A stretch of DNA of 64,000 nt from Clostridia bacterium (GTDB lineage: Bacteria > Bacillota > Clostridia > Oscillospirales > Acutalibacteraceae), in the NCBI GenBank assembly GCA_017432485.1, contig JAFRJB010000018.1:1953-65952 (forward strand). The letters run 5' to 3'. The notes under the pieces were generated by a model. It saw only the letters and a list, made by a program, of their open reading frames with translations. It did not search any database and was not told where the DNA came from. Below are positions 4,876 through 29,240 of this stretch, piece by piece. Position 1 is the first letter of the stretch. Each line of letters starts with the position of its first letter. A program made the position numbers and the translations under genes.

Positions 4876-5327
4876 AGTGATTGCCTCTTTTCATAAGGGA
4901 AAATGTTTCTCTGTTATTTTTTTGCGTTTTTGCCACCAAAAACGCACCTGAAGTATTTATTATTTGAGTGCATTAATAAGTCAAAAACACCTGAATTGAT
5001 TGCTTTTGAGGACTTTTTGCGGGAGAGTGCCGTGAATTTGCGCCGATTGCCTGCTCCAAAAAGGTGAAGGAATACTTTGTGTATTGCAAGGCTTTTTGAG
5101 CGGGCAAGCGGTGTACAGGCACCGTGCTATACCGAAAAAAGCATCTCAAAAGCAATCAATTTGTATATTATGAATATATTATGACTTATTTTCTATCGTT
5201 TTGCAAGTAAAATTTGTGAATATTCTCCATTGCTTAATTTTGTTAATTAATATAGAATATATGAGTGCCACAATATGTGGCTTTCAAATTGTTTAAAAAT
5301 ATAGATAAAGTATATGGAGGGAAACAA

Positions 5328-8590: not shown

Positions 8591-9463
8591 ATGAACCAAA
8601 ATATTACAGGAGAAATCCAAGAACTTGATATTTCGCTTATTGATGAATATCCAAACCATCCCTTTAAAGTGGTTGATGACGAAAAAATGATAGAACTAAC
8701 CGATAGCATTGAAAAAAACGGCGTATTATTACCAATACTTGTTAGACCAAAAGAAGGAGGCAGATATGAGATGATTTCCGGACACAGACGCTTAAGGGCA
8801 AGTGAACTAGCAGAAAAAAAGACAATTAAAGCCATGGTCTGTGATTACGACGATTTAACTGCTGCAATCGTTATGGTTGAGAGTAATATTAATCAAAGAG
8901 ATAATATGCTACCAAGCGAAAAAGCGTTTGCTTATAAAATTCTTTATGATGCCATGAAACATCAGGGAAGGCAAATAGAAATAACTTCGACACCAGTGGT
9001 GTCGAAGTTACGTTCAAACGAAGAACTCGCATATCAAGTAGGCGAAAGTAGAGAACAAATCCGCAGATACATTCGCCTAACAGACCTTGTTCCCGAACTG
9101 CTTGAATATATGGACAAGGGTAAAATGGCACTTCGCCCGGCTGTTGAACTGTCCTACCTGGACGAAGAAAGCCAAAGAGATATCGTGGACTTTATTGATG
9201 AAAACGAATCAACACCTTCTCATGCGCAAGCAATCAGAATGAGAAAGCTTTTTGAAAATGGCAAACTTGACACAAAAAAAATCGTGAAAATAATGTCTGA
9301 AATCAAACCCAATCAAAAAGAAAAACTCGTTCTCCATGCAGAAAGAGTTAGAAAGTACATTCCAAAAACTATTCCCCTTGAAAAAACCGAGGAATATGTA
9401 TGTAAAGCACTTGAACATTACACCAAGTATTTGCAAAAACAAAAAAGCCGAGATGCAAGGTAG
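8591..9463 (+). CDS. ParB/Srx-fold N-terminal domain protein (ParB-like partition/nuclease protein)
   Basis: RBS GGAGGA. Motifs LPILVRPKEGGRYEMISGHRRLRA (ParB box with GHRR). Ends in SRDAR. Confidence 0.85.
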   Translation: MNQNITGEIQELDISLIDEYPNHPFKVVDDEKMIELTDSIEKNGVLLPILVRPKEGGRYEMISGHRRLRASELAEKKTIKAMVCDYDDLTAAIVMVESNINQRDNMLPSEKAFAYKILYDAMKHQGRQIEITSTPVVSKLRSNEELAYQVGESREQIRRYIRLTDLVPELLEYMDKGKMALRPAVELSYLDEESQRDIVDFIDENESTPSHAQAIRMRKLFENGKLDTKKIVKIMSEIKPNQKEKLVLHAERVRKYIPKTIPLEKTEEYVCKALEHYTKYLQKQKSRDAR

Positions 9464-9590: not shown

Positions 9591-10223
9591 ATGAAGAAAT
9601 ATGTATTAGTGATTTTAGTGGTACTTGTTGCTTCGCTCACTGCCTGCGCAGTCAAAGCAAGCACCAACCCATCGGATCCGCAAACAGAAGTCAGTATAAC
9701 CAGTGAAGAAACAAGTGAGTTGGTAACCGACACTACTAAAAAAGAAAGTGTAAAGGAAACCACTCAAACGACTTCAAAGAAACAAAAGAAAAGCGCTTCT
9801 AAAAAAGCGACTACCGAAAAGAAAGAAACTACAAAATCACAAACCACTACCAAAGAAGCTACCACCACTCACAAACAACCCACTACTCAAAAACCAACCG
9901 AAAAGAAAACTACAACCACCAAAAAACAGACAACTACTAAAAGGCAGCAAACAACAAAAGCGCCTACCACGAAACCTCAAACCACAAAGCCGAAAACTTG
10001 TACCAATAACTATAATCACAGTTTATCGTGCGGCAATATGGGAAGATGGTTCAGTTCAAGAAGTGAAGTCAGAGCCTATGTTAATGCTGAAATGAACAAA
10101 TGGAACAGTCTGTTTGAAAGCGGTACAATCGGTGAGAATGAATACTTCCGTAATTGCCCCTCCGGTTATGAGTGTTGGAGTTGTTCTAACTGCGGAAGAT
10201 GGACAGGTAACTTCACTTACTAA
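9591..10223 (+). CDS. lipoprotein with a Thr/Lys-rich low-complexity linker and a Cys-rich C-terminal domain
   Basis: Signal peptide with lipobox MKKYVLVILVVLVASLTAC. RBS AAAGGAG. Confidence 0.7.
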   Translation: MKKYVLVILVVLVASLTACAVKASTNPSDPQTEVSITSEETSELVTDTTKKESVKETTQTTSKKQKKSASKKATTEKKETTKSQTTTKEATTTHKQPTTQKPTEKKTTTTKKQTTTKRQQTTKAPTTKPQTTKPKTCTNNYNHSLSCGNMGRWFSSRSEVRAYVNAEMNKWNSLFESGTIGENEYFRNCPSGYECWSCSNCGRWTGNFTY

Positions 10224-10244
10224 AACAAAATACTGCGGAGAAAA

Positions 10245-10274
10245 GGGCAAGAGAAATCTTGCTCTTTTTCTTTT
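10245..10274 (+). terminator. hairpin plus T-run after the lipoprotein gene
   Basis: GGGCAAGA-GAAA-TCTTGCTC (one G-T pair) followed by TTTTTCTTTT. Confidence 0.5.
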
Positions 10275-10291
10275 GCAGGGAAAGGACAAGA

Positions 10292-13200
10292 ATGAAAAGA
10301 TTAAGTAAAAGGACAGTATCTCTCTTACTTGCTTTATTAATACTCACCTCGGTATTTCCATTAGCAGCTTTTGCTGAAAGTGCTAACTTGGGTAAAGTGA
10401 CAGGACGCGATATTAATGTGACTGTTAGTTCTCATTATGGTCACGAACTCCATACCGCCACTGTCGGTGGAAACACTTACCCGCTTTTCTGTGTTGAATA
10501 CAACACCACATCCCCTTCCGAAGCATATTTAAAAGCAAGGAAAGCAGGTTCTAATGCCGATGTCATTACGGCAGCGAAATGGATTTTTGCCGGTTACTAT
10601 CTCGAGCATGGTAATTCCATAAATTGGAAAGATATGGCTATGTGTCAAAAGAAAGTTTGGTCGATTATGGGCAGTAGCACTTCCTGGGATTTCTCTGACA
10701 GTGATTACGAGAACTGGTGTGATACGGCAGAAGCAAATATGAAGAAACTGAACACAAAGCCCTCTTTCGATAAAACCAATGTCGGAACAATCACAGCTGG
10801 CACAAGTAAAACCTTTACGGATACGAACAAAGTCTTTAAAGACTATCCCGCTTTTACCATCAACAAAGACGGGATAAAAATGGTTCACAGCGCCGGCACA
10901 AACACGCTCGTTGTAACTGTCGATAAAACCTGCACACAAACCTCTTTCAGTATCCTTAACGGTGCCTACTACAAAACCGATACCGGTGATGATGACGAGC
11001 TGTTGCTCTACTACCCTTACGGCAGTGAGAGTTACCAAAAACTGATTTATTCGGCATACTATGATCCCGTCTCATTTTCGGTTGTAGGTAATATCCAACC
11101 ACTTGGTGATTTAAAAATAAAAAAGGTGTCGGAAGATGGAAAAACCGAAGGCTTTAAATTCACTATCAATGGAACAAATTATACCAAAACCGTTTCCACC
11201 GATGCAAACGGTGAAGCGGTTTTAGATTACCTTGTTCCCGGTACCTATACTGTAACCGAAGCGAGCAGTAATATTTATGAGCCGCAAAGCACTAAAAGCG
11301 TTACTGTTCAATCAAATAAAACCGCAACCATATCATTTTCTAATGTGCTTAGAAAAGGCAGTTTGCAAGTAACGAAAACTTCCGAGGATGGCATTAATGA
11401 AGGCGTAAAATTCAGATTGACAGGTACTTCCCTGTCGGGCGAAACTATCAATGAAACTGCAAGCACCAATGCAGATGGTGTTGCCACCTTTAAAAACATC
11501 TTGATTGGTACGGGATATGTTATTGAAGAAGTTAATACGGCTATACGCTATGTTATTCCCGATAATCAGACCACCTCAATCAAGTGGAATGAGGTTACAA
11601 AAGCAAGTTTCACAAATACTCTCAAAAAGTTTCGGGTAACCGTTACAAAAACTGACAAAGAAAAAGGCGCCGCACAAGGCGATGCTACTCTTGCCGGAGC
11701 AAAATATGGTTTGTATGATAACGGCCGGTTGGTTGGCACATATACTACCGATGCTCACGGTCAATTCACCACAGACTACTATATTTGCGGTGAACATTGG
11801 ACTATCAAAGAGATTGAACCGAGTGAGGGATATTTGCTTGATAGCACTGTCGATAATGTCGGTGCAAGTGCATCTCTTTATACCATTGAATACAACAGTA
11901 CAAGTGCGGCAGTAAAAGAACAGGTAATCAAAGGTAACATTGCTGTTATTAAGCACAGCGATGACGGCAGTACGCAAATTGAAACTCCCGAACCTGAAGC
12001 AGAGTTCCAAGTCTATCTCAAATCTGCCGGTTCTTTTGCCGATGCAAAAGCAAGTGAAAAAGCGGTTTTAGATTGCGATAATGACGGTTTTGCACAAGCC
12101 ACTAATTTGCCTTACGGCGTATACACTGTTCATCAAACAAAAGGCAAAGAAGGTTCTGAGTTTATGCCGGACTTTGATGTATTTGTTTCGGAAAACGGTA
12201 AAACCTACAAGTATCTTATTAACAACGCCCCATTCCAAGCATATATCAAAATCATAAAGACAGATACAGAAACAGGCAAAAGCATTCCTTATGCGGGCGC
12301 AGGTTTCCAAATCTTTGATGCTTCGGGCAAAAAGATTTCAATGTCTTTCACTTATCCCAAAAAGACAACCGTGGATACTTTCTATACTAATGAAGAAGGC
12401 TATCTTTTAACACCCGAGAAATTGGAATTGGGTAGAGGTTATTCCCTTGTAGAAGTCACTGCGCCTTACGGCTATGTATTAGATAACTCTCCCGTTTCTT
12501 TTGATGTAACAAGAGAAAACAGCCACTATGAAGATGCACTCACAATCGTAAAAGTAAACAAAAAAAATGTGGCACAAAAAGGTGTTATCCAAATCACCAA
12601 GACCGGCGAGGTTTTTGCGAGCGTGGAAAACAGCGATAGTATATATACGCCTGTATATGAAGAACAGAACCTTAAAAATGCTGTCTTTGAAGTCTATGCT
12701 GCTGAAGATATTGCAACAGGCGACGGTGCCATTCGCTACCATAAAGGAGCTTTGATAGATGAAATCACAACCGGTGAAGACGGCATTGCCATTTCCAAAG
12801 CGATATATCTCGGCAAATACAAAGTTACCGAAAAGGCAGCACCCGATGGTTTTGTGAAAGACACAACCGAATATATTGTAGAGCTTTCCTATGCCGGTCA
12901 AAATATCAAAGTAACAAGTACCGCTTTGAATATGAACAATCAACGACAGAAAGTAAGCGTTTCACTTGCAAAATCGGTTCAGGTTGATGAAACCTTCGGC
13001 ATCGGTAAATCGGGCGAAGTAGAATCCATACAATTCGGTCTTTTTGCCGCAGAAACAATTACTGCCTCGGACGGTTCTGAAATCCCCGAAAATGGGCTTA
13101 TCACTTTCGCATATTGCGATGAAAACGGCAAAGTTGCTTTTGATTGTGACCTGCCTTTAAACGCAAAGTATTATGTGAAAGAACTCTCTGCCGATAATCA

Positions 13201-14137
13201 TTATATCATTGATGAAAGTAAGTATGAATTTGATGCAGCATATAAAGGGCAAGATGAATCCGTTATTGATATTCAAATCAATGACGGACAAATCATTGAA
13301 AACAAATTGCTTTATGGCAGTATCAAAGGAACAAAAACCGACAGAGAAAGTGGCAAACCTATTGCGGGAGTTGTTTTCGGTTTGTTCAAATCTGACGCAC
13401 AAGAGTATAATGAACAAACAGCTGTTTTGACTGTGACAACCGATAAGAACGGTGCTTTTGAGTTTGCAGGTGTTCCCTACGGTTCCTATTTCATTAAGGA
13501 ATTGAAAGCCGCCGACGGTTATCTTGAAAACAGTACATTGTATACACTTGACATTACCGAAAACGAACAAGTTATCGAGTATAATATCGTGAATGACCGT
13601 ATTCCCGAACTCAAAACAAGTGCTACCGTGAACGGTAAGAAAACGATGGAACAAAACAAAGTGCTTGATATTTATGACATTGTTGAGTATCAGCATTTAG
13701 TTCCCGAAACGGAATATACCATCAAGGGAATTTTGATGGATAAAAAGACCGGCAAACCGTTGCTTATTAACGGCAAAACTGTGACTGCCGAAATAACCTT
13801 TGTACCGAAAGAGCCGAGCGGTTCATTAGAACTTGTTTTCAAGGTTGATAGCAGTTACCTCACGGAAGATACTGAAATTGTCGTCTTTGAAACGCTGTAT
13901 AAAGATGGCACCGAAATTGCTTCCCATTGTGATTTAAAGGATAAGGAACAAACCGTAAAAATCACTATGCCGAAACCGAAACAAACCACCAAAGTTCCGG
14001 ACACCGGCGACAATCTCGACAAGAGAACCATATATACAATGGCTGCTGCATCTGCTCTCGCCATTCTCGTTATCGTTTACAATCTTCTCAGAAAGAGAAA
14101 GAAATCTGACAAGGAGGATGATAAGCATGAGCATTAA
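10292..14137 (+). CDS. cell-wall-anchored adhesin with many CnaB/SpaA-type (prealbumin-fold) repeats
   Basis: ATG at 10292 gives the signal peptide MKRLSKRTVSLLLALLILTSVFPLAAFA. Repeated G(S/D)LxVxKxxEDG...GxYxVxExxAPxGY modules. C-terminal VPDTGD plus a hydrophobic helix plus RKRKK, which is a sortase-type signal with a non-canonical motif. Confidence 0.85.
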   Translation: MKRLSKRTVSLLLALLILTSVFPLAAFAESANLGKVTGRDINVTVSSHYGHELHTATVGGNTYPLFCVEYNTTSPSEAYLKARKAGSNADVITAAKWIFAGYYLEHGNSINWKDMAMCQKKVWSIMGSSTSWDFSDSDYENWCDTAEANMKKLNTKPSFDKTNVGTITAGTSKTFTDTNKVFKDYPAFTINKDGIKMVHSAGTNTLVVTVDKTCTQTSFSILNGAYYKTDTGDDDELLLYYPYGSESYQKLIYSAYYDPVSFSVVGNIQPLGDLKIKKVSEDGKTEGFKFTINGTNYTKTVSTDANGEAVLDYLVPGTYTVTEASSNIYEPQSTKSVTVQSNKTATISFSNVLRKGSLQVTKTSEDGINEGVKFRLTGTSLSGETINETASTNADGVATFKNILIGTGYVIEEVNTAIRYVIPDNQTTSIKWNEVTKASFTNTLKKFRVTVTKTDKEKGAAQGDATLAGAKYGLYDNGRLVGTYTTDAHGQFTTDYYICGEHWTIKEIEPSEGYLLDSTVDNVGASASLYTIEYNSTSAAVKEQVIKGNIAVIKHSDDGSTQIETPEPEAEFQVYLKSAGSFADAKASEKAVLDCDNDGFAQATNLPYGVYTVHQTKGKEGSEFMPDFDVFVSENGKTYKYLINNAPFQAYIKIIKTDTETGKSIPYAGAGFQIFDASGKKISMSFTYPKKTTVDTFYTNEEGYLLTPEKLELGRGYSLVEVTAPYGYVLDNSPVSFDVTRENSHYEDALTIVKVNKKNVAQKGVIQITKTGEVFASVENSDSIYTPVYEEQNLKNAVFEVYAAEDIATGDGAIRYHKGALIDEITTGEDGIAISKAIYLGKYKVTEKAAPDGFVKDTTEYIVELSYAGQNIKVTSTALNMNNQRQKVSVSLAKSVQVDETFGIGKSGEVESIQFGLFAAETITASDGSEIPENGLITFAYCDENGKVAFDCDLPLNAKYYVKELSADNHYIIDESKYEFDAAYKGQDESVIDIQINDGQIIENKLLYGSIKGTKTDRESGKPIAGVVFGLFKSDAQEYNEQTAVLTVTTDKNGAFEFAGVPYGSYFIKELKAADGYLENSTLYTLDITENEQVIEYNIVNDRIPELKTSATVNGKKTMEQNKVLDIYDIVEYQHLVPETEYTIKGILMDKKTGKPLLINGKTVTAEITFVPKEPSGSLELVFKVDSSYLTEDTEIVVFETLYKDGTEIASHCDLKDKEQTVKITMPKPKQTTKVPDTGDNLDKRTIYTMAAASALAILVIVYNLLRKRKKSDKEDDKHEH

Positions 14138-15728: not shown

Positions 15729-18239
15729 GTGAAAAGATTTAAACTGATTATTTCGTTTGTTCTTATCGTAATGGTTGTGTTTCCGTTTTCCATCCTTCCG
15801 GTAAATGCTTCGAGCTACTATGATTTAGTCAAAGATAGTAAAGCTTCCGAGAATTTCGATGACGACAAAGTCAATGTCGGCATTGATGAAACGCAAAGGA
15901 GGAACACGGATTATTCCGTATACAATACCTACAACATTATCGGGGAACAAACAGTAGAAGTTCGAGCAACGCAGCATACCACATACACTGCAAAAGTGCC
16001 CGCCATTCTCATAGTGGATGGCGCTTTCAAGCCAAATGATACTAATGATTTTTCATTCGAAGTATCTGTAGAAGGAAATATAGCTGGCGATGCTATGGTG
16101 AAACTTCAACCCGACAATAGCTTTATGCTTTCTTCCTACGGAAAAGATGAAATCCCTGCATCCATCACACAAGAGAAAACCAAATTCACTTACGAAGATG
16201 GCGTTCGCATAAACAATCCCGTTTCAACAATGGGTTTTGGAAAAGTGCAGAATATGACTGCAGGGCTTTGGTTTGGCAGTTGGAACTATAACATTCGTTT
16301 GCTGCCGATTGTGGATTATGATTGCTATACTTGGGCTGATGACGATTACACTACCGGTCAAATTACAGGTATTACCGAACTGGGTAAAGACAAGTTAGAA
16401 ACCTTTGGCATTATGCTTTTTCCCGAACCAAATGAAGCTGACAATTATGATGGAGTTAAAAGTATCTCATCTGATGTATCCGCTCTCACAAAGGGAATTG
16501 ACAGAACAGATTGCGATATTGTTATTCCCAAAACACTTGAAAGAATTGAGGATAGTGTAGGCAGTCAATCTCCTTTTGGTTTTGGAACAGTAAATAAAGT
16601 CATATTTGAAAAGCCGTCTTCACTCAAGTATATCGGAAACTGTGCATTCACATGTGCAAACATTAAAGAACCGATTGAAATTCCTGCTTCTGTGGAAGAA
16701 TTGGGAACACTTGCTTTAGCAGAAATAAACGGTTATCTTTCAAACTCAAGTAAATATGCATATATTTCATTTGAGCAAGGTTCAAAACTTAAAACTATTG
16801 GAGATCAAGCATTTCGGTACGCTAATGTTACCGGCAAACTGATTTTGCCTGAAGGTTTAGAAACAATTGGGACAGAAGCGTTTTCATATTGCAATTATTC
16901 AGAGATCGCTATTCCTGATTCTGTTACAACAATCGAAAACCATGCTTTTTCCAAAAGAACCGCAAATGGTACTTCTCCCTTTCTTAAACTGAATTTTCCC
17001 GCAAATCTTACAAATTGGAGCGAAGCATTTGCATATTCAGCTATTACACAGTTTGTTATTCCGGATACTATTACCATTATCCCTGCAAATGCTTTTAAAA
17101 GTTGCTCAAATCTCACAAAAATCACGATGTCACCGAATCTTACTCGCATAGGTGGATATGCCTTCGCATACACTGCTCTTTCCAGCGTGACCATTCCCGA
17201 CAAAGTTGAGTATTTAGGGCACAGCGCATTTAATGGCACAAAACTAACAAGTTTAGTTTTGCCGGACAGTATCAATGAGTTAGGCGGTTCTTGCAATTAC
17301 GGTGAAGAATCACCCGTGTATAACTGCAAGCTTCTCACTTCAATCACAATAGGAAAAAACACGCCAAATTTGGATAAGTTTAATTTTTCCTCGTTGACAA
17401 AGCTGGCTACCATAACGCTCAATGGGACAAAAAACATTGCTTCATCAGCATTTGCAAGATGCGCAGCACTCACAACACTTAATATTAATCCCGGAGTCGA
17501 AACAATCGGAAGTAATGCCTTCTCGGGTTGTAGCAAACTCATAAAAGTGAATTTTACCGGTACAATCAATGAGTGGTTCCACATCTCTTTTGAAAATGCT
17601 GGCAGTGATCCGACTTTCATTACACGTGCTCTCTATCTGAATAATAAACCGGTTACCAGCATAACTATCCCCAGTTGGCTTGAAAATGTAGGGGCTTCGT
17701 ATAGCGAAGGCAATCGTTGTGTAGCATGGACTCCCCTTACAAGTGTTGTAATCGAGGAGGGAGTATCGGAAATTAATAGCGGTGCTTTTGAAAACTGTTC
17801 CAATTTGACATATATTAAGTTACCGCAAAGTCTTACTCGTATCGGAAGCAATGCATTTTCTTACTGTTCTCAGTTAAAAAGCATTGTACTCCCTTCTGAT
17901 ATTACGGAAATTGAATCAAATACTTTTTCCTCATCCGGTCTTACAAGTATCACCATACCTGATAATGTTACAGTAATTGGTTCGAATGCCTTTCGCTCTT
18001 GCAAAAGCCTTGTCACAGTCAATCTTTCCTCCGGTCTGAAAACGATTGGAGAATATGCTTTTTCAAGTTGTACAGCTACTACAAACTTGACCATTCCGAA
18101 TAGCGTTGAAACCATTGAAAGATATGCTTTTAACAGTATAACTAAACAAATTAGAATTGATAATGTAGAAGGTTCTATTTCCGGTTCCCCTTGGGGAGCA
18201 AGAGCATCGAACATTGTTTGGTTGCGAGAAGCAGAATAA
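15729..18239 (+). CDS. secreted BspA-type leucine-rich-repeat protein
   Basis: GTG start after AGGAGG. Signal peptide. Long array of ~23-aa repeats (IGxxAFxxCxxLxxIxIPxSV), the LRR_5/BspA type. Confidence 0.85.
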   Translation: MKRFKLIISFVLIVMVVFPFSILPVNASSYYDLVKDSKASENFDDDKVNVGIDETQRRNTDYSVYNTYNIIGEQTVEVRATQHTTYTAKVPAILIVDGAFKPNDTNDFSFEVSVEGNIAGDAMVKLQPDNSFMLSSYGKDEIPASITQEKTKFTYEDGVRINNPVSTMGFGKVQNMTAGLWFGSWNYNIRLLPIVDYDCYTWADDDYTTGQITGITELGKDKLETFGIMLFPEPNEADNYDGVKSISSDVSALTKGIDRTDCDIVIPKTLERIEDSVGSQSPFGFGTVNKVIFEKPSSLKYIGNCAFTCANIKEPIEIPASVEELGTLALAEINGYLSNSSKYAYISFEQGSKLKTIGDQAFRYANVTGKLILPEGLETIGTEAFSYCNYSEIAIPDSVTTIENHAFSKRTANGTSPFLKLNFPANLTNWSEAFAYSAITQFVIPDTITIIPANAFKSCSNLTKITMSPNLTRIGGYAFAYTALSSVTIPDKVEYLGHSAFNGTKLTSLVLPDSINELGGSCNYGEESPVYNCKLLTSITIGKNTPNLDKFNFSSLTKLATITLNGTKNIASSAFARCAALTTLNINPGVETIGSNAFSGCSKLIKVNFTGTINEWFHISFENAGSDPTFITRALYLNNKPVTSITIPSWLENVGASYSEGNRCVAWTPLTSVVIEEGVSEINSGAFENCSNLTYIKLPQSLTRIGSNAFSYCSQLKSIVLPSDITEIESNTFSSSGLTSITIPDNVTVIGSNAFRSCKSLVTVNLSSGLKTIGEYAFSSCTATTNLTIPNSVETIERYAFNSITKQIRIDNVEGSISGSPWGARASNIVWLREAE

Positions 18240-18878: not shown

Positions 18879-19166
18879 ATGAGCGAAAAAAAGATGAACG
18901 GTGAGTATGAAATCATACAAACCTTAATTATCGGGGATGCGGTTTTAGCGTTAGGCCATAATCCCAACATCCCCGAAAACAATATGACAACGCCCTATGT
19001 CACATGGCAAGCAAACGAGGATTTAACTAACTTTTATTGGGGGCACTACCATAAGTCACTTTATGCTGCGCAGAGAGATTTGGTCAAGCGTGGCGTAGAA
19101 AAAGTACGGTTCTATGATAGACAGAACGGATTTACCAAAACCCATAAGGAGCGTGATGCACGATGA
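18879..19166 (+). CDS. hypothetical small protein, paralog 2
   Basis: MSEKKMNGEYEIIQTLIIGDAVLALG...LYAAQRDL. Ends in ERDAR. The stop overlaps the next start (ATGA). Confidence 0.65.
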   Translation: MSEKKMNGEYEIIQTLIIGDAVLALGHNPNIPENNMTTPYVTWQANEDLTNFYWGHYHKSLYAAQRDLVKRGVEKVRFYDRQNGFTKTHKERDAR

Positions 19167-19441
19167 ACAAATATATTTTCGGATACAAGATTATTCAGCG
19201 GCTTCCTATTCGGGATGTCACTTTTTTTATCGGTCGGAATAAAAGAGCGAAATCGCCGTATATTTCCTTCTTTATGCGAGAAGGAAACGATAACACAGCG
19301 AGGCTCAAATTCCACGACTCCTTGTATGATGCACAAAAGGAAATCGTTATCAATGCATACTGCGAAATCCCCATGATTGAACACTATATGGCAAAGGAGG
19401 CAGAGAAATATGCCAAACAATCCGACTGTCAACAAGTATAG
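19163..19441 (+). CDS. hypothetical small protein, paralog 3
   Basis: MNKYIFGYKIIQRLPIRDVTFFIG...LYDAQKEIV. Confidence 0.6.
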   Translation: MNKYIFGYKIIQRLPIRDVTFFIGRNKRAKSPYISFFMREGNDNTARLKFHDSLYDAQKEIVINAYCEIPMIEHYMAKEAEKYAKQSDCQQV

Positions 19442-19658
19442 ACTTCTTGAAAAACTCAAAAATGCCGGATATGCCGATGAAAAAAGTATTCTGAATATGG
19501 ACATAAGCATTATCGGTGTAAAAACCATTACACGGGTTGAACTCGAATATGTTTTAGAAATCCGAGAAGCAGTGCGCCAAAAAAGGATAATTGAGTATCT
19601 TGCAAGTCCGCATTTAAAACTTGATTCCCCGAAAGGAAGTGACAAGAATGGAACTTAA
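19410..19658 (+). CDS. hypothetical small protein
   Basis: AAGGAGG lies 8 nt before the ATG at 19410 (MPNNPTVNKYRLLEKLKNAGY...). The track ORF 19377 starts upstream without an RBS. Confidence 0.55.
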   Translation: MPNNPTVNKYRLLEKLKNAGYADEKSILNMDISIIGVKTITRVELEYVLEIREAVRQKRIIEYLASPHLKLDSPKGSDKNGT

Positions 19659-20598
19659 TTTGCGACCTATGGGCAAGAAAGAACAACTCTATGCCTACAC
19701 CCAATCACAAACTATCAGTTCTAAAACCGGTTACTTGGGTTACCTTCGTGGTGATTTCGGCAAAAGCGGAGAGGAGTATCACCCTACTTTTTTTGAGTAT
19801 GATGGCAGCAATGACAATGAACACTTCGTTATGATTTTCGGCGAGTTAATTGATGCGCTTCAAACCGACAAAAGACAATATCAACCGATGAGCAATCGCA
19901 ATAACATGAGAGCATTTTGTTCTTTTCAGCAAAAAGCCCTTATGCAAGGCAACTACGGTGAAGAATACGGCTTCCGAGTTGATGTTGAAGAATATGCTTT
20001 TCTCATCCGCTTTGAGCCGTATCAATTAGGTGATTATGATTTCTACATCTTTGCCTATGAAAAAGAGTACCTTGACCACCACATAAAAAAGGCATCCAAA
20101 GATATTCGTTTTATCACTCCCGACTACAAAACTATCTTTATGTTGGAGGACGGTGACAATATCAAAATCTTTCACAAAGATGGTAGTAGTGTCGTAAGAA
20201 ACTGTCGTTTCATTGATGAATATCACACTGAAATCGGTAATTGTATCTATCATATCTGTGAATTTGCAGAGATTTGTAAACGCGCAGAAAGTACCGTTAT
20301 CCCTTATCGCCAATCTCTTCCCGAGAAAGCATACACCTTTGACGAAGACAATAACAAAATCATCGAAATCATAAAAGGAAATGCTCAAAGCAAAATCATA
20401 CCTAATCCAAGTATATATTCGCCTTTAAACGAAGCATATACTAATAATTTAAACAAAGACTTGGGCGTGTCTAAAAAACAAATTGGTGCTATGATTGGCG
20501 GTTCTATTCACGGTTGGGACAGTAAACACGCTGATCCCCGCAACTACACGGACGAAGGGAAACTGATACAGCCGAAGAATCGTCAATGGGAAAGATAG
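19648..20598 (+). CDS. hypothetical protein (conjugative-element accessory)
   Basis: GAAAGGAAG precedes the ATG at 19648 (MELNLRPMGKKEQLYAYTQSQ). Ends in RQWER. No family recognised. Confidence 0.65.
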   Translation: MELNLRPMGKKEQLYAYTQSQTISSKTGYLGYLRGDFGKSGEEYHPTFFEYDGSNDNEHFVMIFGELIDALQTDKRQYQPMSNRNNMRAFCSFQQKALMQGNYGEEYGFRVDVEEYAFLIRFEPYQLGDYDFYIFAYEKEYLDHHIKKASKDIRFITPDYKTIFMLEDGDNIKIFHKDGSSVVRNCRFIDEYHTEIGNCIYHICEFAEICKRAESTVIPYRQSLPEKAYTFDEDNNKIIEIIKGNAQSKIIPNPSIYSPLNEAYTNNLNKDLGVSKKQIGAMIGGSIHGWDSKHADPRNYTDEGKLIQPKNRQWER

Positions 20599-20606
20599 GA
20601 GGTCTT

Positions 20607-23600
20607 ATGCCGAATAAATATGAGTTTATAAAAGCCACTTTCGATGAAACACTCAAAGAAATCATAAATTCATCCGAGAAGTGGCAATCCTTTTTAACAA
20701 CCGCTTGCAGAAACTTTAAACTTCCGTTTGAAGAGCAAGTGTTACTCTATGCACAAAGACCAGATGCCACCGCAGTCCTCCCCTTTGACACTTGGAATAA
20801 ACGCTTCGGTAGAAGAATCAAAACAGGCGCTTCCGGCATAGCGGTCATTCAAGACCTTGCCGGTCAAAACCAAAGACTGAAATATTACTTTGATATTTCC
20901 GACACAAGACAAACCGAGTTTTCCAAGCCTGTTCCTCTTTGGATTTATCGGGACGAATATGCCGATGATGTTGTCGAAATGCTTGAAGACACCTATGGTG
21001 AACTCTCCAAAAAGTTTGACATTGCAAATGCTGTCATTTCCGCGGCCGAAAATATGGCAGCGGATAATCTTCCCGATTACAAAAGTGACTTGATAAGATA
21101 TTCCAAACAAGGCAGCTACCTTGAAGACCTTGACGATGATATCATTGAAAGCGAATTCAGAATGCTTGTAGAAAAAAGCGTTGCCTTTATGATACTCACA
21201 CGGCTTGGCATTGACGCTACCGAATATTTTGCGGACGAGGATTTTCAATCTGTCTTTGATTATAATACTCCCGATGCCTTATCGGTTCTCGGTACTGCAA
21301 CAAGTGATATTGCAAAAATGGGGCTGTCCGAAATAGGAAGAACCGTATTTTCTCTTGCAAAACAAAATCGCACATTTGCGCAACAAAAGCAAAGCGAATA
21401 TACTAAAGCCGATAAAGAAAACGAAAGGAGTGTTCACAATGACACAAGTACAATACACAACCGTGAACGGGATGAAACTTCCGAACCTCGTTCTCCCGCA
21501 GGACAAGCAGATACATTTTGGTCGGTACGCCGAAATGCACAGACAGTTTCTCAAGGAGAACCACAAACCGTATTACACGAGCCTGAAGATGCAGTGCAAG
21601 CTCGACAGCCATCTGGGCGAGATTCAGACGAGAGCGACCGAGATGGAAAGCCGCCTGATGAAACAGATGGCGAAAAAAGAGGGCTTGACGGAAGCACTCA
21701 AGGCACAGAACATGATGGCTTGGGTGCAAGGGATGAACAATCTCAAGAGTCGAGTGCAGGAAATCGTGCTGACGGAAGTAGTTTATCAGAGGTAAGCGAT
21801 GAGCTGCCGCCCTTCGTTGATGAAGAAGTGATACTCGGCATTCTTGCCAACAAGGATAACGACCTTGTTCAAGACAAATCGACTATTGCAGAATTCTTCA
21901 AGGCAAATCCCGATAATGAGCGGCAAGCCGAGTTTCTCAAATCTATCTATCCTGTTCGCTATACCGAATTGGATATAGGCAACCAAAGAGTCGGGTACTA
22001 CCCGACAGCAGACGGACTTCTTTTGTGGGAAGGTCACTACCTCTCACGCACAAAGGAGTCCGTTTTTTCTTGGAGTTTAGTCGCCGAGCTGACAGACAAC
22101 CTTATAAGACAAGGCAAGTATATCGAAAACCAATCCCCGCAAATCAACCTCTTTGACTTTGCAGATTCCATTCCTATGGAACAAAGCTTTGACGAACCGG
22201 AACAAACTTCCCTGTTATTTGATTTTACCTTACCGCAGCAGATTATTGATGAAGCCCTTTGCATCGGTTCAAACGAGACTAACAGCAAGTTGGATATCGT
22301 GATGTTTTTCCGTAGAGACAGAGGAAACGAGTATAATGCAAAGTTTTTAAAAACGCACTACGGAACTAACGGTGCCGGTTTTTATTTTCAAGGTGAACCG
22401 ATTGCCGTTTGGTATAACCAAGATGGGATGTATATCTCCAGAGGAAAGTCGGCGCAGAAATCTACCGCTACTCATCTGTCGTGGGAGCAAGTCGCCAACA
22501 GAATTGGCGAGCTACTTGATATGGGCAGGTACCTACCGCAATATCAGTTGGACAAAGTCGATGATAGAGAACTGACTTTTTTAGCAGAACGCATCACAAT
22601 GTTCTACCGTGATATGACGGAAATCGACAGAGAACGCTGTTTCCCGTCACTCATAGAACCGTTAAAAGAAAAATACGGCTATCCCGATGAATTAGAAGTA
22701 GTCAAAAACCTGCTTTCAAATCCCGATACTTTTGAAGATTTAGATAATGACTATATCGAGTTTATGGATAACCGTCGCAGAGGGAGCCTTCAAAGTGCTT
22801 TAAAGTATTCTTTTCGGTATTCTCCCGAATACATCTATGAGATTATGAAAGGAGTGTCTCTTGAAAAAAAGGACTATATCGCCGAAGCGGGATATAACCC
22901 CGAAAGAGAGTATTTCATTTCAGACGATGAAATCGACAAACTGCTTATTTCCGGCACAATGGTCAGCGGAGGGAAACAACGAGTTGTATCCTTTTTTCAA
23001 GAAAATACCGATGTACAAAAAAGAGCACAAATGCTGAAAAATGAATATGGTTTAAGCGGCTTCGGTTCGGGTAATGACAATGCAAACTTTGATGGTAAAG
23101 GCTTCTATTTCAGTCACGGTTCCATTATGGAGCCATATGCTAAAGTCCTTTTGCCTTGGACAGATATTGCAAAAAGAGTTGACCGACTGATTAAGGCGGG
23201 CAAATATCTCCCTGCAAATGAAATCGAAAAAGGCAATGAGGATAAATCGGAGCCACAAAAAGACACGACACAGAAACTCAACAATGATCAAATCCAAGAA
23301 CTCGGTGCACTCGATAACTTGTTTCACGCTTGCAAAATGAATGATATTACTGTCGAATTTGATGGTAGTACGCTGATAGCATATGATGATGACAATGTCT
23401 GGAAAGATGCAGAAGTTTATGACTTTATTCTTAATGAGGTACTCGCCTTTGATGTAAACGGCTTGCTTGTTGAAGGCTTAAGCATGGACAGCGACATCGT
23501 TACAGAAATCGTCAAATATGCTGCAAAATACAATGTTAAACCTGCTTTTGCTGATGAAGTGCCTGAGTTTATCCAAAGCTATGCGGGACTAAAAGCACAG

Positions 23601-26600
23601 TATCCCAATACCATTTTGTTTGTCAGGGTTGGAGATTTTTATGAAGCCCTTGATGAAGACGCTAAAAATGTAGCCAAAGAACTCGACCTTGTATTGACCG
23701 GTAGAACGATAAACACGGAAACCGGGGAACGCATCCCGATGTGCGGTGTTCCTGTTCATAACATCGACCTGTATATTTCACAGCTTGTTGCAAAGGGCTA
23801 CACTGTCGCGCTCGCTGAGCAAGAAGATGTAAAGCGGGTAGTCGCACCTGGCAAAACAGAAAAAACCGTTGAAGAAGTTGAACAAACTTCTCTTGCTTCT
23901 CGCTTGGTTTCGTTTGCGAAAGATTATGACTTTTATGATTACCAAGATAACCTTGAAATCGATGAAACCGATGAGGATGCAGAAGCGAAAATGCAGAAGA
24001 ATCTGCAAGAAAAAGCCTTTTGCGAGTCCCTAATCAGTTTTCTATCGGACAGAGCTGCCGAAATCAGCATTGATGCACACGAAGCGGGAAATGATGAAAC
24101 GGAAAGGTTAAAAACTTTACAAACCTTGCTGTATGACTTAACTGCTCATACGAATGCCTTACCCGCACAAGAAACAGCACCCGAACAAGACTATACAGAT
24201 TTAATCGGCGAGGAGATTGTCCTTGATGGTATGCACTTTGTTGTCGAATCGGTCAATGGCAATTATGTATCGATGCGAGACAAGACATTCGCCGAGAATA
24301 ACGGGTTTCCAATCTTTCGCAGAGAGCATATAGAAAGTATTTTACCTTTACTTCAAAAGGGAGAAAAGCCGCCCGAAGAAATCCTCCCTGCGCCGCAAAA
24401 AATACACACGAGAGTAAACGAATTCGATTTGCATCCCGAAGTGCCGCCGGAACAGCGGCATAATTTTGATTTTTCACAAAAGGAAATCGAAACTGTCGGC
24501 AAAAAAGAGCGTTTTCGTCGCAATATTGCAGCTATCAATGTGCTCAAAGAGTGCGAGTTTGATAATCGCTTTGCCACACCCGAAGAACAAGAGGTACTTT
24601 CACAGTATGTCGGCTGGGGCGGTATTCCCGAAGCGTTTGATGAAAACAATTCCGCTTGGGCTGATGAATACAAAGAGTTAATTATCACCCTTTCCCCCGA
24701 TGAATATGAAGCGGCAAAAGAAAGCACCCTAACCGCCTTCTACACACCCCAACCTGTAATCGCAGCAATCTATTCTTCTTTGCAAAGTATGGGCTTCAAA
24801 CAAGGCAATATTTTGGAACCTTCGTGCGGTATCGGCAACTTCATCGGTATGCTGCCGAAGGAGTTACAAGACAGCAAAATGTATGGCGTAGAAATCGACA
24901 GCATTTCTGCACAGATAGCCCAACAGTTATATCAAAAATCATCTGTAATGGCTTCACCCTTTGAAAAAACCAATCTGCCCGATTCTTTCTTTGATGTCGT
25001 GGTCGGTAATGTGCCTTTCGGCGATTTCAAAGTCGCCGACAAACGGTACGATAAACACAACTTCCTTATTCACGACTACTTCTTTGCAAAGTCCATTGAT
25101 AAAGTCCGTGCCGGCGGTCTTTTGTTTTTGGTTACTTCCAAAGGCACGATGGATAAAGAAAACTCGGCGGTGCGCAGATATATTGCGCAGCGAGCGGAGC
25201 TTCTCGGAGCCATTCGCCTGCCGAACGATACATTTGGCGGCAATGCAGGAACCGATGTCACATCGGATATTCTTGTATTGAAAAAGCGTGACCGATTGGT
25301 CAATGAGGAACCGGACTGGCTGATGCTTGACAGCAGTGAAGACGGTATTCGGTTGAACAAATACTTTGTCGAGCATCCCGAAATGATACTCGGCAATATG
25401 GTGATGAAATCGGGCAGGTTCGGTCCCGAAAGCACATGCGAGCCATTCGATGACAGAACACTTGAAGAACAGCTTGAACAGGCGTTTTCCAATATCAGCA
25501 CAGAGTACACCGAAGTCACTCTTGATGATGATTTGGAAGAAGATGTGGCATATATCCCCGCAGACCCGACAGTTAAAAACTTTTCTTTTACTTTGGTTGA
25601 CGGAACTATTTATTTCCGCGAAAATTCCATAATGAAGGAAGTAAAAACTTCAGCAACAGGTGAAAACCGCATTAAAGGATTACTTCAAATCCGCGAGAGT
25701 GTACGCAAGCTCATTGAACTGCAAACCGATGACTTTCCTGAAAGCGAAATCTTGGCAGAACAAAAGCATTTAAACGAAGTTTATGATGCCTTTACCAAAA
25801 AGTATGGTCTTATCAATAGTCGTGCCAACCGCATGGTGTTCTCTGATGACAACTCATATTATCTGCTTTCCGCATTGGAGGTGCTTGACGAAGAAGGCAA
25901 CCTTGAACGAAAAGCGGATATGTTCTCAAAGAGAACTATTAAACCGCATATTCCCGTAACAAGTGTTGACACATCTATGGAAGCTCTCGCCGTATCTATG
26001 GGCGAAAAAGCAAAGCCCGATATGGAATATATGATGCAGCTCACGGGCAAATCGGAAGAAGAAATCTATTCTGATTTAGTCGGTGTTATCTTTCTTAATC
26101 CTATGTACTCGGAAGATAGACCATCCGAAAACAAATACTTACCTGCCGATGAATACCTTTCGGGAAATGTTCGTGCCAAATTGCGAGCCGCTGAAAACTT
26201 GGCAAAGGTTAATCCTGAATTTCAAGTTAATGCGGAAGCACTTGAAAAAGTGCAACCAAAAGATTTAAGTGCAAGTGAGATTGATGTGCGTTTAGGTGCC
26301 ACTTGGTTACCGCCCGATGTTGTACAGAAGTTTATCTATGAGTTTTTGGATACCCCCTACTATTCCAGATACAAAATTAAAGTGAACTTTTCGCCGCATA
26401 CAGGTGAATGGAACATCACTGGCAAATCAAGTGACTACGGGAATGTTAAAGCAAACAGCACCTATGGCACAACACGCATCAATGCCTACAAAATCATCGA
26501 ACAAACTCTTAACCTTAAAAATGTGCGCATCTTTGATTATGTGGAAGATGCCGATGGCAAACGAACTGCCGTGCTCAATAAAAAGGAAACGGCTATCGCG

Positions 26601-29240
26601 CAATCAAAGCAAGAATTGATAAAGCAGGCTTTCAAAGATTGGATATGGTCAGACCCCGACAGAAGAACAAAACTCTGTCGGTTATATAACGACAAATTCA
26701 ATTCTACACGACCTCGTGAATATGACGGAAGTCATATTATTTTTAGCGGAATGAACCCTGAAATAAACTTGCGCCCGCATCAAAAAAATGCCGTTGCGCA
26801 TATCCTCTATGGAGGCAATACGCTATTGGCTCACGCAGTCGGTGCCGGCAAAACTTTTGAGATGGTTGCTGCTGCGCAAGAGAGCAAAAGACTTGGTTTA
26901 TGCACCAAGTCTTTATTTGTTGTCCCAAACCATTTGACGGAACAATGGGCAGCCGAATACTTAACGCTCTATCCTTCTGCAAACATTCTTGTCGCTACTA
27001 AAAAGGATTTTGAAACAAAGAACCGTAAAACCTTCTGCGGCAGAATTGCAACAGGCGATTATGATGCTGTTATCATCGGGCATTCGCAGTTTGAAAAGAT
27101 ACCAATGAGCTTAGAGCGACAGCGATATTTAATCGAACAACAGATTGATGAAATCGTTGAGGGCATTGATGAGGCAAAGAGAAACAACGCAGAGAACTTC
27201 ACGGTCAAGCAGATGGTGAGAACAAAAAAGAGCCTTGAAACTCGATTAGCTAAACTTAATGACCAAAGCCGAAAGGATGACATCGTCACCTTTGAAGAAC
27301 TCGGCATTGATCGTATCTTCATTGACGAAAGCCATTACTACAAAAACCTTTTCCTTTATACCAAAATGAGAAATGTCGGCGGTATCGCTCAAACCGAGGC
27401 ACAGAAGTCCAGCGACCTGTTTATGAAGTGCCGATACCTTGATGAAATCACCGGCGGCAAAGGTTCCGTATTTGCCACAGGCACACCCATTTCCAATTCA
27501 ATGGTTGAACTTTACACCATTCAGCGCTATTTGCAATACCACACTTTGCAAATGAATGGGCTGCAGTTATTCGATGCTTGGGCATCCACCTTCGGTGAAA
27601 CCGTGACCGCTGTGGAACTCACTCCCGAAGGTTCGGGCTATCGCGCCAAGACACGCTTTGCGCGCTTCTATAACCTGCCTGAACTGATGGCGATGTTCAA
27701 GGAAATTGCTGATATTCAAACAGCCGATATGCTTGACCTGCCTGTCCCTAAAGCAAACTACCACAACATTGCCGTAAAGCCTTCGGAGTTACAAACCAAG
27801 ATGGTAGAAGGTCTCTCGGAGCGAGCAGATAAGGTGCGCAATCGTCAGGTTGATTCCAATGTCGATAATATGCTTGTCATCACCAACGACGGTAGAAAAT
27901 TGGCACTTGACCAGCGAATGATTGATGAGATGCTTCCCGATTATGAGGGCAGTAAGGTCAACGCCTGTGTCGATAATATCTTTGAGATATGGGAAGCCAA
28001 TGCCGACAAAAAATCTGCGCAGTTAGTGTTCTGTGATCTGTCCACTCCGAAGCAAGGAACCTTCTCCGTGTACTTTGACATTCGTGACAAGCTGATCGCA
28101 AAGGGTATCCCTGCGGATGAAATCGCTTTTATTCACGATGCCAAAACGGAAACACAAAAGGCAGACCTCTTTAAGAAAGTGCGTAGCGGTGAAGTCCGCG
28201 TGTTAATGGGCAGCACACAGAAGATGGGTGCAGGTACAAATGTGCAAGACCGCTTAATTGCCTTGCACGATTTAGATTGTCCTTGGCGACCTTCCGACTT
28301 GGAGCAGCGTTCCGGCAGAATTATCCGACAAGGCAACGGTAACGAAGAAGTAGATATTTTCCGCTATGTTACCGAGCAAACCTTTGATGCCTACCTCTAT
28401 CAATTAGTGGAAGGAAAACAAAAATTTGCCTCTCAAATTATGTCAAGCAAGTCTCCTGTTCGGTCGGCTGAAGACATTGATGAAACGGCATTATCGTATG
28501 CTGAAATCAAGATGCTTGCGACCGGTAACCCGTATATTAAAGAGAAGATGGACTTGGATATTCAGGTACAAAAACTGCGCCTGTTAAAATCCAACTTTTT
28601 GTCGGAACGATACTCATTAGAAGACAAGGTTCTCTCCTACTTCCCGCAAAAAATCACGGAATATGATGAGCGTATTGCTGGTTTGGAGAAAGATATAGTC
28701 ACTGCAAAAGAGCATCCAAAAGCCAACGGCGATAGTTTTGTCGGTATGGTAGTCAACGGTATTCCCTACTCCGAAAGAGCAGATGCCGGTGCCGCTATTA
28801 TTGATGTATGCAAAACCTTACCCGATACGCAGACCTATCCTTTAGGCGAATATAGAGGGTTTAAATTGGAAGTGAACTATGATAGCTTTGAGCATCAGCA
28901 TCGCGTATTCATTAAAGGTGCAATCACTTATCAAGGAACACTCGGTACAGATGGTGTCGGTAATGTGGTAAGAATTGATAACATTATCGACGGATTGGAA
29001 GCGACATTAAACACTACTAAACAACAACGGGAGAACACTCAAATGCAGTTTGAAACCGCAAAAGAAGAAATTAAAAAGCCGTTTGTAAAAGAGGAAGAAT
29101 TAAAGCAAAAAGAAGCAAGGCTTAATGAGTTAAATGCTCTTTTGAATGTTGATAAAAAGGAGAATGACCTTGTTGATGATGTGCCTGATGCAACAGATTC
29201 CTCACCGAGTAAAGTACCCGTTGACAGAGATGCTCGTTGA
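20607..29240 (+). CDS. polyvalent conjugative-element protein: ArdC_N-like ssDNA-binding domain, disordered linker, MutS domain-I-like module, N6-adenine DNA methyltransferase, SNF2-family helicase
   Basis: AGGAGG precedes the ATG at 20607. N-terminus [35 protein letters not shown]. MutS-I-like [31 protein letters not shown]...[30 protein letters not shown]. MTase motifs [11 protein letters not shown] and VVGNVPFG. Helicase motifs [19 protein letters not shown] and [11 protein letters not shown]. Ends in DRDAR. Confidence 0.85.
   Translation: [2877 protein letters not shown]
21439..21795 (+). CDS. tnpV: TnpV-family ORF nested in the +1 frame inside the polyvalent gene
   Basis: AAAGGAG lies 8 nt upstream of the ATG at 21439. 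The product is MTQVQYTTVNGMKLPNLVLPQDKQIHFGRYAEMHRQFLKENHKPYYTSLK...AKKEGLTEALKAQNMMAWVQGMNNLKSRVQEIVLTEVVYQR, which I recognise as the TnpV pattern (from memory of Tn4451-type TnpV). G/C is enriched at third positions of this frame. Confidence 0.55.
   Translation: MTQVQYTTVNGMKLPNLVLPQDKQIHFGRYAEMHRQFLKENHKPYYTSLKMQCKLDSHLGEIQTRATEMESRLMKQMAKKEGLTEALKAQNMMAWVQGMNNLKSRVQEIVLTEVVYQR

Follow-up and report, generated by a model that had tools for sequence, protein, structure and literature searches.

Can one stretch of bacterial DNA encode a folded protein in one frame and the connecting linker of a giant protein in another, and if so, which of the two frames came first? This question is raised by a 64,000-nucleotide stretch of DNA from a Clostridia bacterium of the Acutalibacteraceae (GenBank assembly GCA_017432485.1, contig JAFRJB010000018.1, positions 1,953 to 65,952), which is called the window hereafter. 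The open reading frame (ORF) at 20586..29240 (+) is the gene of a giant polyvalent protein of 2884 aa when counted from the first ATG; the start is probably ATG 20607 (2877 aa), because the N-termini of homologues align to M8. Within this gene, on the same strand and in another frame, lies a complete gene of the TnpV family, tnpV. A sequence-only reading of the window had offered two alternatives, namely true dual coding over a tolerant linker or capture of a tnpV cassette into the linker. The former is upheld here, while capture as a recent event is set aside on account of the apparent age of the arrangement and of a local rise in guanine + cytosine (GC) content that is universal among relatives. 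The overlap is very probably a genuine case of dual coding, with one gene fully nested in the other on the same strand of a conjugative element, and comparison among relatives shows, at the level of sequence, that both frames are selectively maintained across the Bacillota.

The nested gene and its conservation

The nested gene comprises 118 codons (354 bases) and a stop, from ATG 21439-21441 to TAA 21793-21795 (21439..21795, +; giant residues 285-404), and is in the +1 frame relative to the giant gene, as (21439-20586) mod 3 = 1. It is preceded by a Shine-Dalgarno (SD) sequence, GAAAGGAG, at 21423..21430 (+), with a spacer of 8 nt to the ATG. Therefore, the 118-codon ORF with its start and SD inside the giant ORF, first pointed out by the sequence-only reading, is confirmed, as is the openness of the alternative frame over 146 codons: the ORF at 21355..21795 (+), contained in the giant ORF, encodes 146 aa from a TTG, and from stop to stop the frame has 152 codons. 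The product, which had been described as globular and TnpV-like, matches the Pfam TnpV model PF14198 over its full length (model positions 1-111 of 111), scoring 125.7 bits where the cut-off is 27 (E=1e-36), and the AlphaFold2 (AF2) model, made with a 55-sequence alignment, is a compact N-terminal beta-hairpin plus five helices with a predicted local distance difference test (pLDDT) score of 85.5. Like a stand-alone TnpV of ~110-130 aa, it is small (118 aa), has its own ATG and SD and is carried on a mobile element.

The giant frame over the same DNA is of low complexity, as had been read, and it is predicted to be disordered. In an AF2 model of giant residues 1-505 (85-sequence alignment), residues 8-263 (20607..21374, +) are folded with pLDDT ~90, residues 264-405 (21375..21800, +) have pLDDT ~27 and are without secondary structure, and residues 406-505 (21801..22100, +), the start of the next folded domain, have pLDDT ~88 and are in frame with the head. 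Since the nested gene corresponds to residues 285-404, the overlap is wholly inside this predicted disordered tether, which is hydrophilic in composition. The head is probably an ArdC-N-like single-stranded DNA (ssDNA)-binding domain: among PDB folds it matches ArdC of R388 best (6sna_A, probability 0.99, E 0.016), and distant tblastn matches to it are annotated as 'ArdC-like ssDNA-binding domain-containing protein'. Pfam gives no match, even at E<=1, for the first 278 aa of the giant protein or for the 591 aa that follow the linker.

The near-invariant E-R-S motif of the giant protein is nothing other than the bases of the tnpV SD, GAAAGGAG, decoded in frame 0: E280 and R281 are invariant in a 17-sequence alignment, and in an 85-sequence alignment R281 is again invariant, with E280 and S282 conserved to at least 90%. 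Downstream, no start codon preceded by an SD is found in the giant frame at 21700-22200, which bears out the earlier remark that the gene does not simply split in two; an independent restart of the downstream giant domains was rejected on this ground. A promoter and terminator scan of 19000-23000 gave no more sites than were found in shuffled sequences, and no internal promoter ahead of tnpV.

A protein search with giant residues 1-505 gave 733 relatives, and nearly all of the best 120 span ~98% of the query in a single frame. The arrangement itself was followed in a set of 82 loci, which consists of the window, a locus of Monoglobus pectinilyticus 'plasmid 12' (L001) and 80 loci from the genome collection, which scored best among the 425 relatives obtained when one genome per species was scanned. 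All 82 loci carry the head domain and a +1-frame TnpV homologue (37-70% identity) between the N-domain and the post-linker domain, and these two domains are in the same frame in all loci whose contig extends that far. The nested ORF is intact, begins with ATG and encodes 114-119 aa in 82/82; an SD stands upstream in every case, nearly always exactly GAAAGGAG (three one-mismatch variants), with a spacing of 7-9 nt. The giant frame is likewise uninterrupted across the nested ORF in all of them, and most run on to 2,000-3,280 codons. Moreover, only 6 of 120 codon columns inside the overlap contain gaps, against 104 of 166 just after it.

Distant relatives of the N-domain (27-31% identity) are found on 175 plasmid records. 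Twelve of these plasmid homologues were sampled and searched with a TnpV hidden Markov model (HMM), and ten have a TnpV-family ORF in the +1 frame immediately after the ArdC-N domain. These ten are plasmids of Clostridium (C. botulinum p05/025 and C. perfringens p3), Enterococcus faecalis (pMP8-1, pAT22-a and pCFSAN126951_02) and Listeria monocytogenes (pLM6179 and pCFSAN008100), two plasmids of Bacillus cereus and a replicon of Aerococcus tenax. The five distant nested copies checked with Pfam are all above the TnpV gathering score (29-86 bits), and the others match the TnpV HMM built here. In the five distant plasmids examined for signals, the ATG is at the family N-terminus and an SD-like GAAAGG, GAGAGG or GAGAAGG is upstream. 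Orthologues, to which the sequence-only reading had pointed as a check, thus keep the nested ORF intact and without stops in the 82 loci and the 10 distant plasmids. Two short stand-alone ArdC-like genes (Lactobacillus plantarum and Sulfobacillus) have no TnpV frame, and a megablast of 20586-22600 against plasmids gave no match. Judged from this distribution, the nested arrangement is ancient and common to the Clostridia and the Bacilli.

Two loci have peculiarities of their own. In the Aerococcus tenax replicon (CP127381.1), the ArdC-N-headed ORF at L169:3953-5260 has 436 codons and keeps the overlap without the methylase-helicase domains, and no gene is annotated at this place in the record. 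Another locus, L010, has its nested copy at 4793-5146 and a second, free-standing tnpV at 10210-10582, which starts two codons before the giant ORF stop and is interrupted by 6 stops in the frame that the nested copy keeps open.

Selection on the two frames

Codon statistics show the TnpV frame to be under purifying selection. In a codon alignment of 101 nested genes, the entropy at tnpV codon positions 1/2/3 is 0.88/0.70/1.18, the order of an ordinary coding frame. Counted by giant-frame positions 1/2/3, the values are 0.74/0.54/1.40 for the N-domain, 1.12/0.82/0.66 for the overlap and 0.97/0.78/1.50 beyond the tnpV stop, so that within the overlap the giant frame varies least at its third position. 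The ratio of nonsynonymous to synonymous substitution rates (dN/dS) by the Nei-Gojobori method (NG86) is 0.26 for the TnpV frame versus 1.42 for the giant frame over 1,048 pairs, the giant value being higher in 100% of them, although NG86 is biased in overlaps and only the contrast between the frames is meaningful. This contrast indicates that the TnpV sequence is conserved, while the tether sequence is free apart from its openness and composition.

Openness of the giant frame was compared with a null in which synonymous codons were resampled from the giant gene's own usage with the TnpV amino acids fixed. In the window, the giant frame has 0 stops versus 6.5 expected, none of 300 resamples was stop-free, and the third frame over tnpV has 11 stops. 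Over 76 unique nested genes, all are without a stop, against 6.3 expected per gene; ~0.7% of the resamples are stop-free, synonymous permutation within each gene still predicts 2.7 stops, and the third frame has ~14 stops across nested copies. In addition, five AT-rich plasmids (giant-gene GC 25-39%) have 0 giant-frame stops versus 8.5-14.6 expected, with 0/2,000 stop-free resamples.

The free-standing members of the family serve as a natural control. When a scan of viral and mobile-element contigs had added further copies, the collection held 150 unique tnpV genes, 101 of them nested (N-domain directly upstream) and 49 free-standing. The frame corresponding to the giant frame is stop-free in 101/101 nested genes versus 0/49 free-standing ones, which have 4.8 stops on average. 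A giant-frame stop needs a tnpV codon ending in T before a codon starting with AA, AG or GA. At such stop-creating junctions T occurs in 0 of 3,615 cases in nested genes, compared with 1,163 of 8,159 (14.3%) at their other junctions and 233 of 1,656 (14.1%) at the same AA/AG/GA junctions of free-standing genes.

This exclusion of T also explains the base composition. The segment had been noticed as GC-richer than its flanks with the codon signature in the nested frame, and the figures agree: local GC is 0.515-0.52 at 21500-21800 versus 0.40-0.42 in the upstream flank and 0.45-0.48 just downstream, GC at third positions (GC3) is 0.686 in the nested frame versus 0.432 in the remainder of the giant gene, and T at third positions (T3) is 0.119 versus 0.299. 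All 82 loci and all 5 AT-rich plasmids have a GC bump over tnpV, and the low T3 (0.099 vs 0.262), the high GC3 and the bump follow from the exclusion of T at stop-creating junctions. On these sequence grounds the GC bump is a consequence of dual coding and does not point to a foreign origin of the DNA; the idea that a foreign GC-rich cassette had recently been captured was accordingly rejected, the excess being universal and explained by T3 avoidance.

Furthermore, to judge from residue and codon usage, the composition of the giant frame is under selection too, not its openness alone. Hydrophobic residues make up 11.9% of the giant-frame peptide, compared with 16.8% under a synonymous null kept free of stops and 18.2% when free-standing genes are read in that frame. 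In the 76 unique copies the overlap peptide is rich in G/D/E/S/A/R/P/Q, with Cys 0 and Lys nearly 0, so Lys and Cys are avoided, and its Ser codons are shifted from TCN to AGY. Constraint is therefore seen in both frames, for either of which the sequence-only reading had considered it: as the low dN/dS of TnpV in the one, and as stop avoidance and hydrophilic bias in the other. The charge of the tether differs among elements, being acidic and Gly-rich in those of gut Clostridia (D+E ~22%, K ~1%) and Arg/Lys/Ser/Asn-rich in the AT-rich Clostridium, Bacillus and Enterococcus plasmids; the universal traits of the tether appear to be hydrophilicity and disorder only, not charge.

Antisense ORFs also run over the dual-coding segment, at 21403-21729 (-) with 108 aa and at 21279-21566 (-) with 95 aa. 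A third, antisense gene at 21403-21729 was considered and rejected: the codon-aligned frame is open in 50% of nested versus 16% of free-standing copies, and this frequent openness is consistent with the T depletion of the sense strand.

Decoding, origin and rival explanations

In the proposed mechanism, one mRNA would be decoded in two frames. Ribosomes from the giant start would make the ArdC-N-like head and then read through the tnpV DNA in frame 0, giving a disordered hydrophilic tether of ~140 residues that would covalently link the head to the domains after it, MutS-I, methylase and SNF2 helicase among them; the giant product would be an anti-restriction/establishment 'polyvalent' protein. 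Other ribosomes would bind the internal SD and, by independent internal initiation at ATG 21439 in the +1 frame, would yield the folded 118-residue TnpV. In such a scheme the TnpV amino acids would be constrained and the giant frame would merely have to remain stop-free and hydrophilic; it is the need to remain open that forces T out of tnpV third positions before AA/AG/GA and raises the local GC.

Some points weigh against this dual-coding reading. The 82 loci are phylogenetically related, so that counts over them are not counts of independent events, and the overlap bias of NG86 mentioned above restricts what the dN/dS values can say. The host ORF of the Aerococcus replicon stops ~30 codons past the overlap and some Listeria plasmids are cut by IS6, which means that tethering to downstream domains is not always kept. 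In addition, internal initiation within an actively translated ORF could be inefficient.

As to which frame came first, the linker frame is probably the younger one, overlaid on a pre-existing tnpV, because TnpV is folded, conserved and widely distributed and the giant-frame peptide is disordered and fast-evolving. It is usual in overprinting for the de novo frame to be the disordered one. Read-through would have fused a head gene, tnpV and a methylase-helicase gene, with the tether frame laid on tnpV. The direction implied by the sequence-only reading, in which TnpV was overprinted into the linker, is thus probably reversed, TnpV being a folded family with many free-standing members. That TnpV was born de novo by overprinting in the polyvalent linker, the transposon tnpV genes being later escapees, is an unlikely account. 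A rough neighbor-joining tree, in which one split unites all 101 nested copies with 5 free-standing ones, would suit it, and so would the span of the nested arrangement over highly divergent host proteins (28% N-domain identity) of the Clostridia and the Bacilli. The same tree, which is too crude to settle the ancestral arrangement, nevertheless places 44 of the 49 free-standing copies outside the nested clan, and their contexts are diverse (serine recombinases, relaxases, coupling proteins, an integrase). Moreover, it is the TnpV frame that is folded and conserved and the giant frame that is disordered and of low complexity, and the short stand-alone ArdC-like genes are without a TnpV frame.

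How TnpV is produced could also be explained by a programmed +1 frameshift that makes an ArdC-N::TnpV fusion, with the SD-like element as a frameshift stimulator instead of a ribosome-binding site. SD-like sequences stimulate frameshifting in prfB and dnaX, the TnpV frame is indeed +1 relative to the giant frame, and one database protein (P0042) is an in-frame head::TnpV fusion. This explanation is quite improbable, since in all 82 loci, as well as in the five distant copies examined, the ATG is exactly at the family N-terminus, a start position that free-standing TnpVs share, and the SD-ATG spacing of 7-9 nt is optimal for initiation. This spacer varies freely among loci and has no conserved slippery or shift-prone motif, and the giant frame is without a stop or hungry-codon stimulator. 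As for P0042, such a fusion is found in only 1 of ~280 protein matches listed, and it is due to an 82-nt deletion in a single contig of 4.2 kb (L175:3040-3470, corresponding to window 21330-21830 with ~88% nt identity). The deletion removes the SD, the ATG and the first ~21 tnpV codons and shifts the giant frame into the tnpV frame, so that a 368-aa head::TnpV fusion ending at the tnpV stop results; read from the contig, P0042 is a broken copy or an assembly error.

That the nested gene is a relic, with a tnpV cassette that the giant gene has absorbed and that is now linker DNA only and no longer gives TnpV, is very improbable. The giant frame does pass through tnpV uninterrupted, and RefSeq has no annotation of the nested ORF on Listeria, Enterococcus and Clostridium plasmids. 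A relic, however, should lose its start, SD and frame, and ATG, SD and 114-119 codons persist in all 82 loci, as they do in distant plasmids; the TnpV frame has the low dN/dS and normal codon periodicity given above, while the periodicity of the giant frame is inverted, and the overlap is nearly free of indels, although the tether length is free to vary just beyond it.

The idea that the giant ORF is an artefact, being really separate head, tnpV and methylase-helicase genes with a frame open by chance or sequencing error, has a negligible probability: the Prokaryotic Genome Annotation Pipeline (PGAP) annotation of L001 does call TnpV and begin an SNF2 protein 3.1 kb downstream, but no giant-frame stop occurs in the 101 unique nested copies and the distant plasmids versus 5-15 expected, with stops in 49/49 free-standing copies, the head and post-linker domains always share a frame, the head would have no stop codon and the downstream part no SD or start, and the arrangement recurs in independent assemblies, complete plasmids included.

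A further and more tentative proposal is possible. The overlap of ArdC-N head and TnpV may be an ancient obligate two-protein unit of Bacillota conjugative elements, functional and not a frozen accident, in which ribosome traffic on the giant frame would set the output of TnpV and TnpV would act with the polyvalent protein, e.g., as an adaptor or chaperone of the ssDNA-bound head in transfer or establishment.

TnpV, the polyvalent protein and related systems

What TnpV does is suggested mainly by its free-standing relatives, whose genes immediately follow the gene of a large serine recombinase (as in Tn4451), of a VirD4/TraG coupling protein, of a Mob_Pre relaxase or of a tyrosine integrase. 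Because they adjoin recombinases, relaxases and coupling proteins, TnpV may be an accessory factor of DNA processing or transfer. In Tn4451, TnpV was postulated as an excision helper from its similarity to lambda Xis (PMC3158075), and in a survey of integrative and mobilizable elements PF14198 was present in 16 of 24 MOBQ2 elements, with 'unknown function, may be involved in transfer' (PMC12084326). An identity as a lambda Xis-like winged helix found no support here, since the model is a hairpin plus five helices and Foldseek against PDB returns no excisionase. In fact, nothing usable for TnpV was found in PDB (best Foldseek E 2.7, best hmmsearch E 0.35), so a mechanism is not transferable from any solved structure, and NCBIfam has no model for TnpV nor for the first 505 aa of the giant protein. 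The free-standing PF14198 proteins, including those of Tn4451/Tn4453, are of the same family and length as the nested ones, have the same N-terminus and are all on Firmicute mobile elements; they differ in that all of them (49/49) have stops in the frame that nested copies keep open.

Polyvalent proteins, which combine several unrelated conflict or DNA-handling domains in a single polypeptide of a conjugative element or phage, often behind an ArdC-N header, were described by Iyer et al. 2017 (PMC5512222), including an ArdC-N-headed, MutS-I-containing architecture, and the giant protein fits that class with its ArdC-N header, MutS_I, methylase, SNF2/ResIII and Helicase_C domains and conjugation genes alongside. 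MutS domain I is at residues 995-1083 (23568..23834, +; PF01624, E=8e-26). A region like an N6-adenine DNA methyltransferase is at ~residues 1400-1540 (24783..25205, +), with weak Pfam matches to Eco57I, Methyltransf_11/25 and MTS and with homologues annotated as class I S-adenosylmethionine-dependent methyltransferase. The SNF2/ResIII helicase core and Helicase_C are at residues 2060-2583 (26763..28334, +), where the Pfam matches (SNF2-rel_dom and ResIII at 2060-2212, Helicase_C at 2507-2583) are placed. The embedded tnpV is an extra layer on this class, and the text of PMC5512222 has no mention of TnpV, overlapping frames, frameshifts or linkers.

The neighbours of the giant gene in the window are ParB, an LPXTG SpaA-type adhesin, a BspA-type leucine-rich repeat (LRR) protein, a DUF3991-Toprim protein, a MobA/VirD2 relaxase and a VirD4 coupling protein, and the locus is taken as a conjugative element because of the flanking ParB, relaxase, VirD4 and DUF3991-Toprim genes. 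A pyruvate phosphate dikinase gene at 5265-7700 (+) is probably host DNA, so the element boundary is possibly close to it. After it come ParB (8591-9463, +), the 1,292-aa SpaA/TQ-ester LPXTG adhesin (10259-14137, +) and the 836-aa BspA-type LRR protein (15729-18239, +); these surface-protein genes precede the transfer genes, and Monoglobus L001 has the same order. Directly upstream of the giant gene, and overlapping the start of its ORF, is a conserved gene at 19621-20598 (+) for a 325-aa protein without a Pfam match, which has a homologue at the same place in L001 (8467-9159); on some distant plasmids the gene upstream of the giant one is annotated as an LPD25 domain protein.

Among known systems the closest analogue is mobB in mobA of RSF1010, a small transfer-accessory gene wholly within a large multidomain DNA-processing gene on a mobile plasmid. 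The mobB overlap falls between the relaxase and primase regions of mobA/repB, and MobB has a known relaxosome role. In this IncQ plasmid, mobB lies inside mobA/repB and is translated in another frame (PMC2200642). It differs from the present case in that MobB is unrelated to TnpV, MobA is unrelated to the ArdC-N/SNF2 polyvalent protein and the host is proteobacterial. We know of no description of deep conservation of the mobB overlap with measurable stop-avoidance statistics.

Another example is comS in srfAB of Bacillus subtilis, a small out-of-frame ORF with its own start in a giant multidomain Firmicute gene, where both products are functional. comS has 46 codons, is known from a narrow lineage, overlaps an enzymatic module of a nonribosomal peptide synthetase and is without a free-standing family, whereas tnpV belongs to a widespread Pfam family, lies over a disordered tether and is in an overlap conserved across the Bacillota. 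Lambda Rz1 is also a +1-frame gene fully embedded in another, Rz, on the same strand; both are translated and the two lysis proteins bind each other. In related phages Rz/Rz1 occur in embedded, overlapped and separated arrangements, while within the present head-domain subfamily only the embedded one was seen. Therefore, same-strand nested genes are already known, and what is new here is the identity of the pair, a Pfam family inside the inter-domain tether of an ArdC-N-headed polyvalent protein, together with the depth of conservation across the Clostridia and Bacilli and a clean evolutionary signature with a natural control. No description of a tnpV nested in an ArdC-N-headed gene was found in the literature searched on TnpV, PF14198, polyvalent proteins and ArdC overlap.

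The overlap has consequences for annotation. The nested tnpV is absent from the annotation tables of the 10 distant plasmids, where the DNA is labelled 'SNF2-related protein', 'ArdC-like ssDNA-binding domain-containing protein' or similar, and this giant-only labelling extends to 95 Listeria plasmids. The opposite error is found at L001:9175-16839, where PGAP keeps the 'TnpV protein' and places the SNF2 start at 12271 rather than 9175, so that ~1,030 residues are lost. A gene caller that does not permit nested genes will always miss either TnpV or the giant protein.

To our knowledge, long (~350 nt) out-of-frame overlaps conserved at the scale of a phylum are very rare in bacteria, and most proposals concern one genome. 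The tnpV overlap has over 100 distinct sequences behind it, together with a position-specific signature of selection and the free-standing paralogues as a built-in negative control, and it offers a natural model for two proteins that share DNA, a folded protein over a disordered tether. Listeria and Enterococcus plasmids are tractable hosts for it, in which mutations silent in one frame and null in the other are easily designed. If the obligate two-protein unit proved true, this pair would be among those long same-strand gene overlaps of bacteria whose known conservation is deepest, and in any case the TnpV family is now linked to the ArdC-N anti-restriction/establishment machinery.

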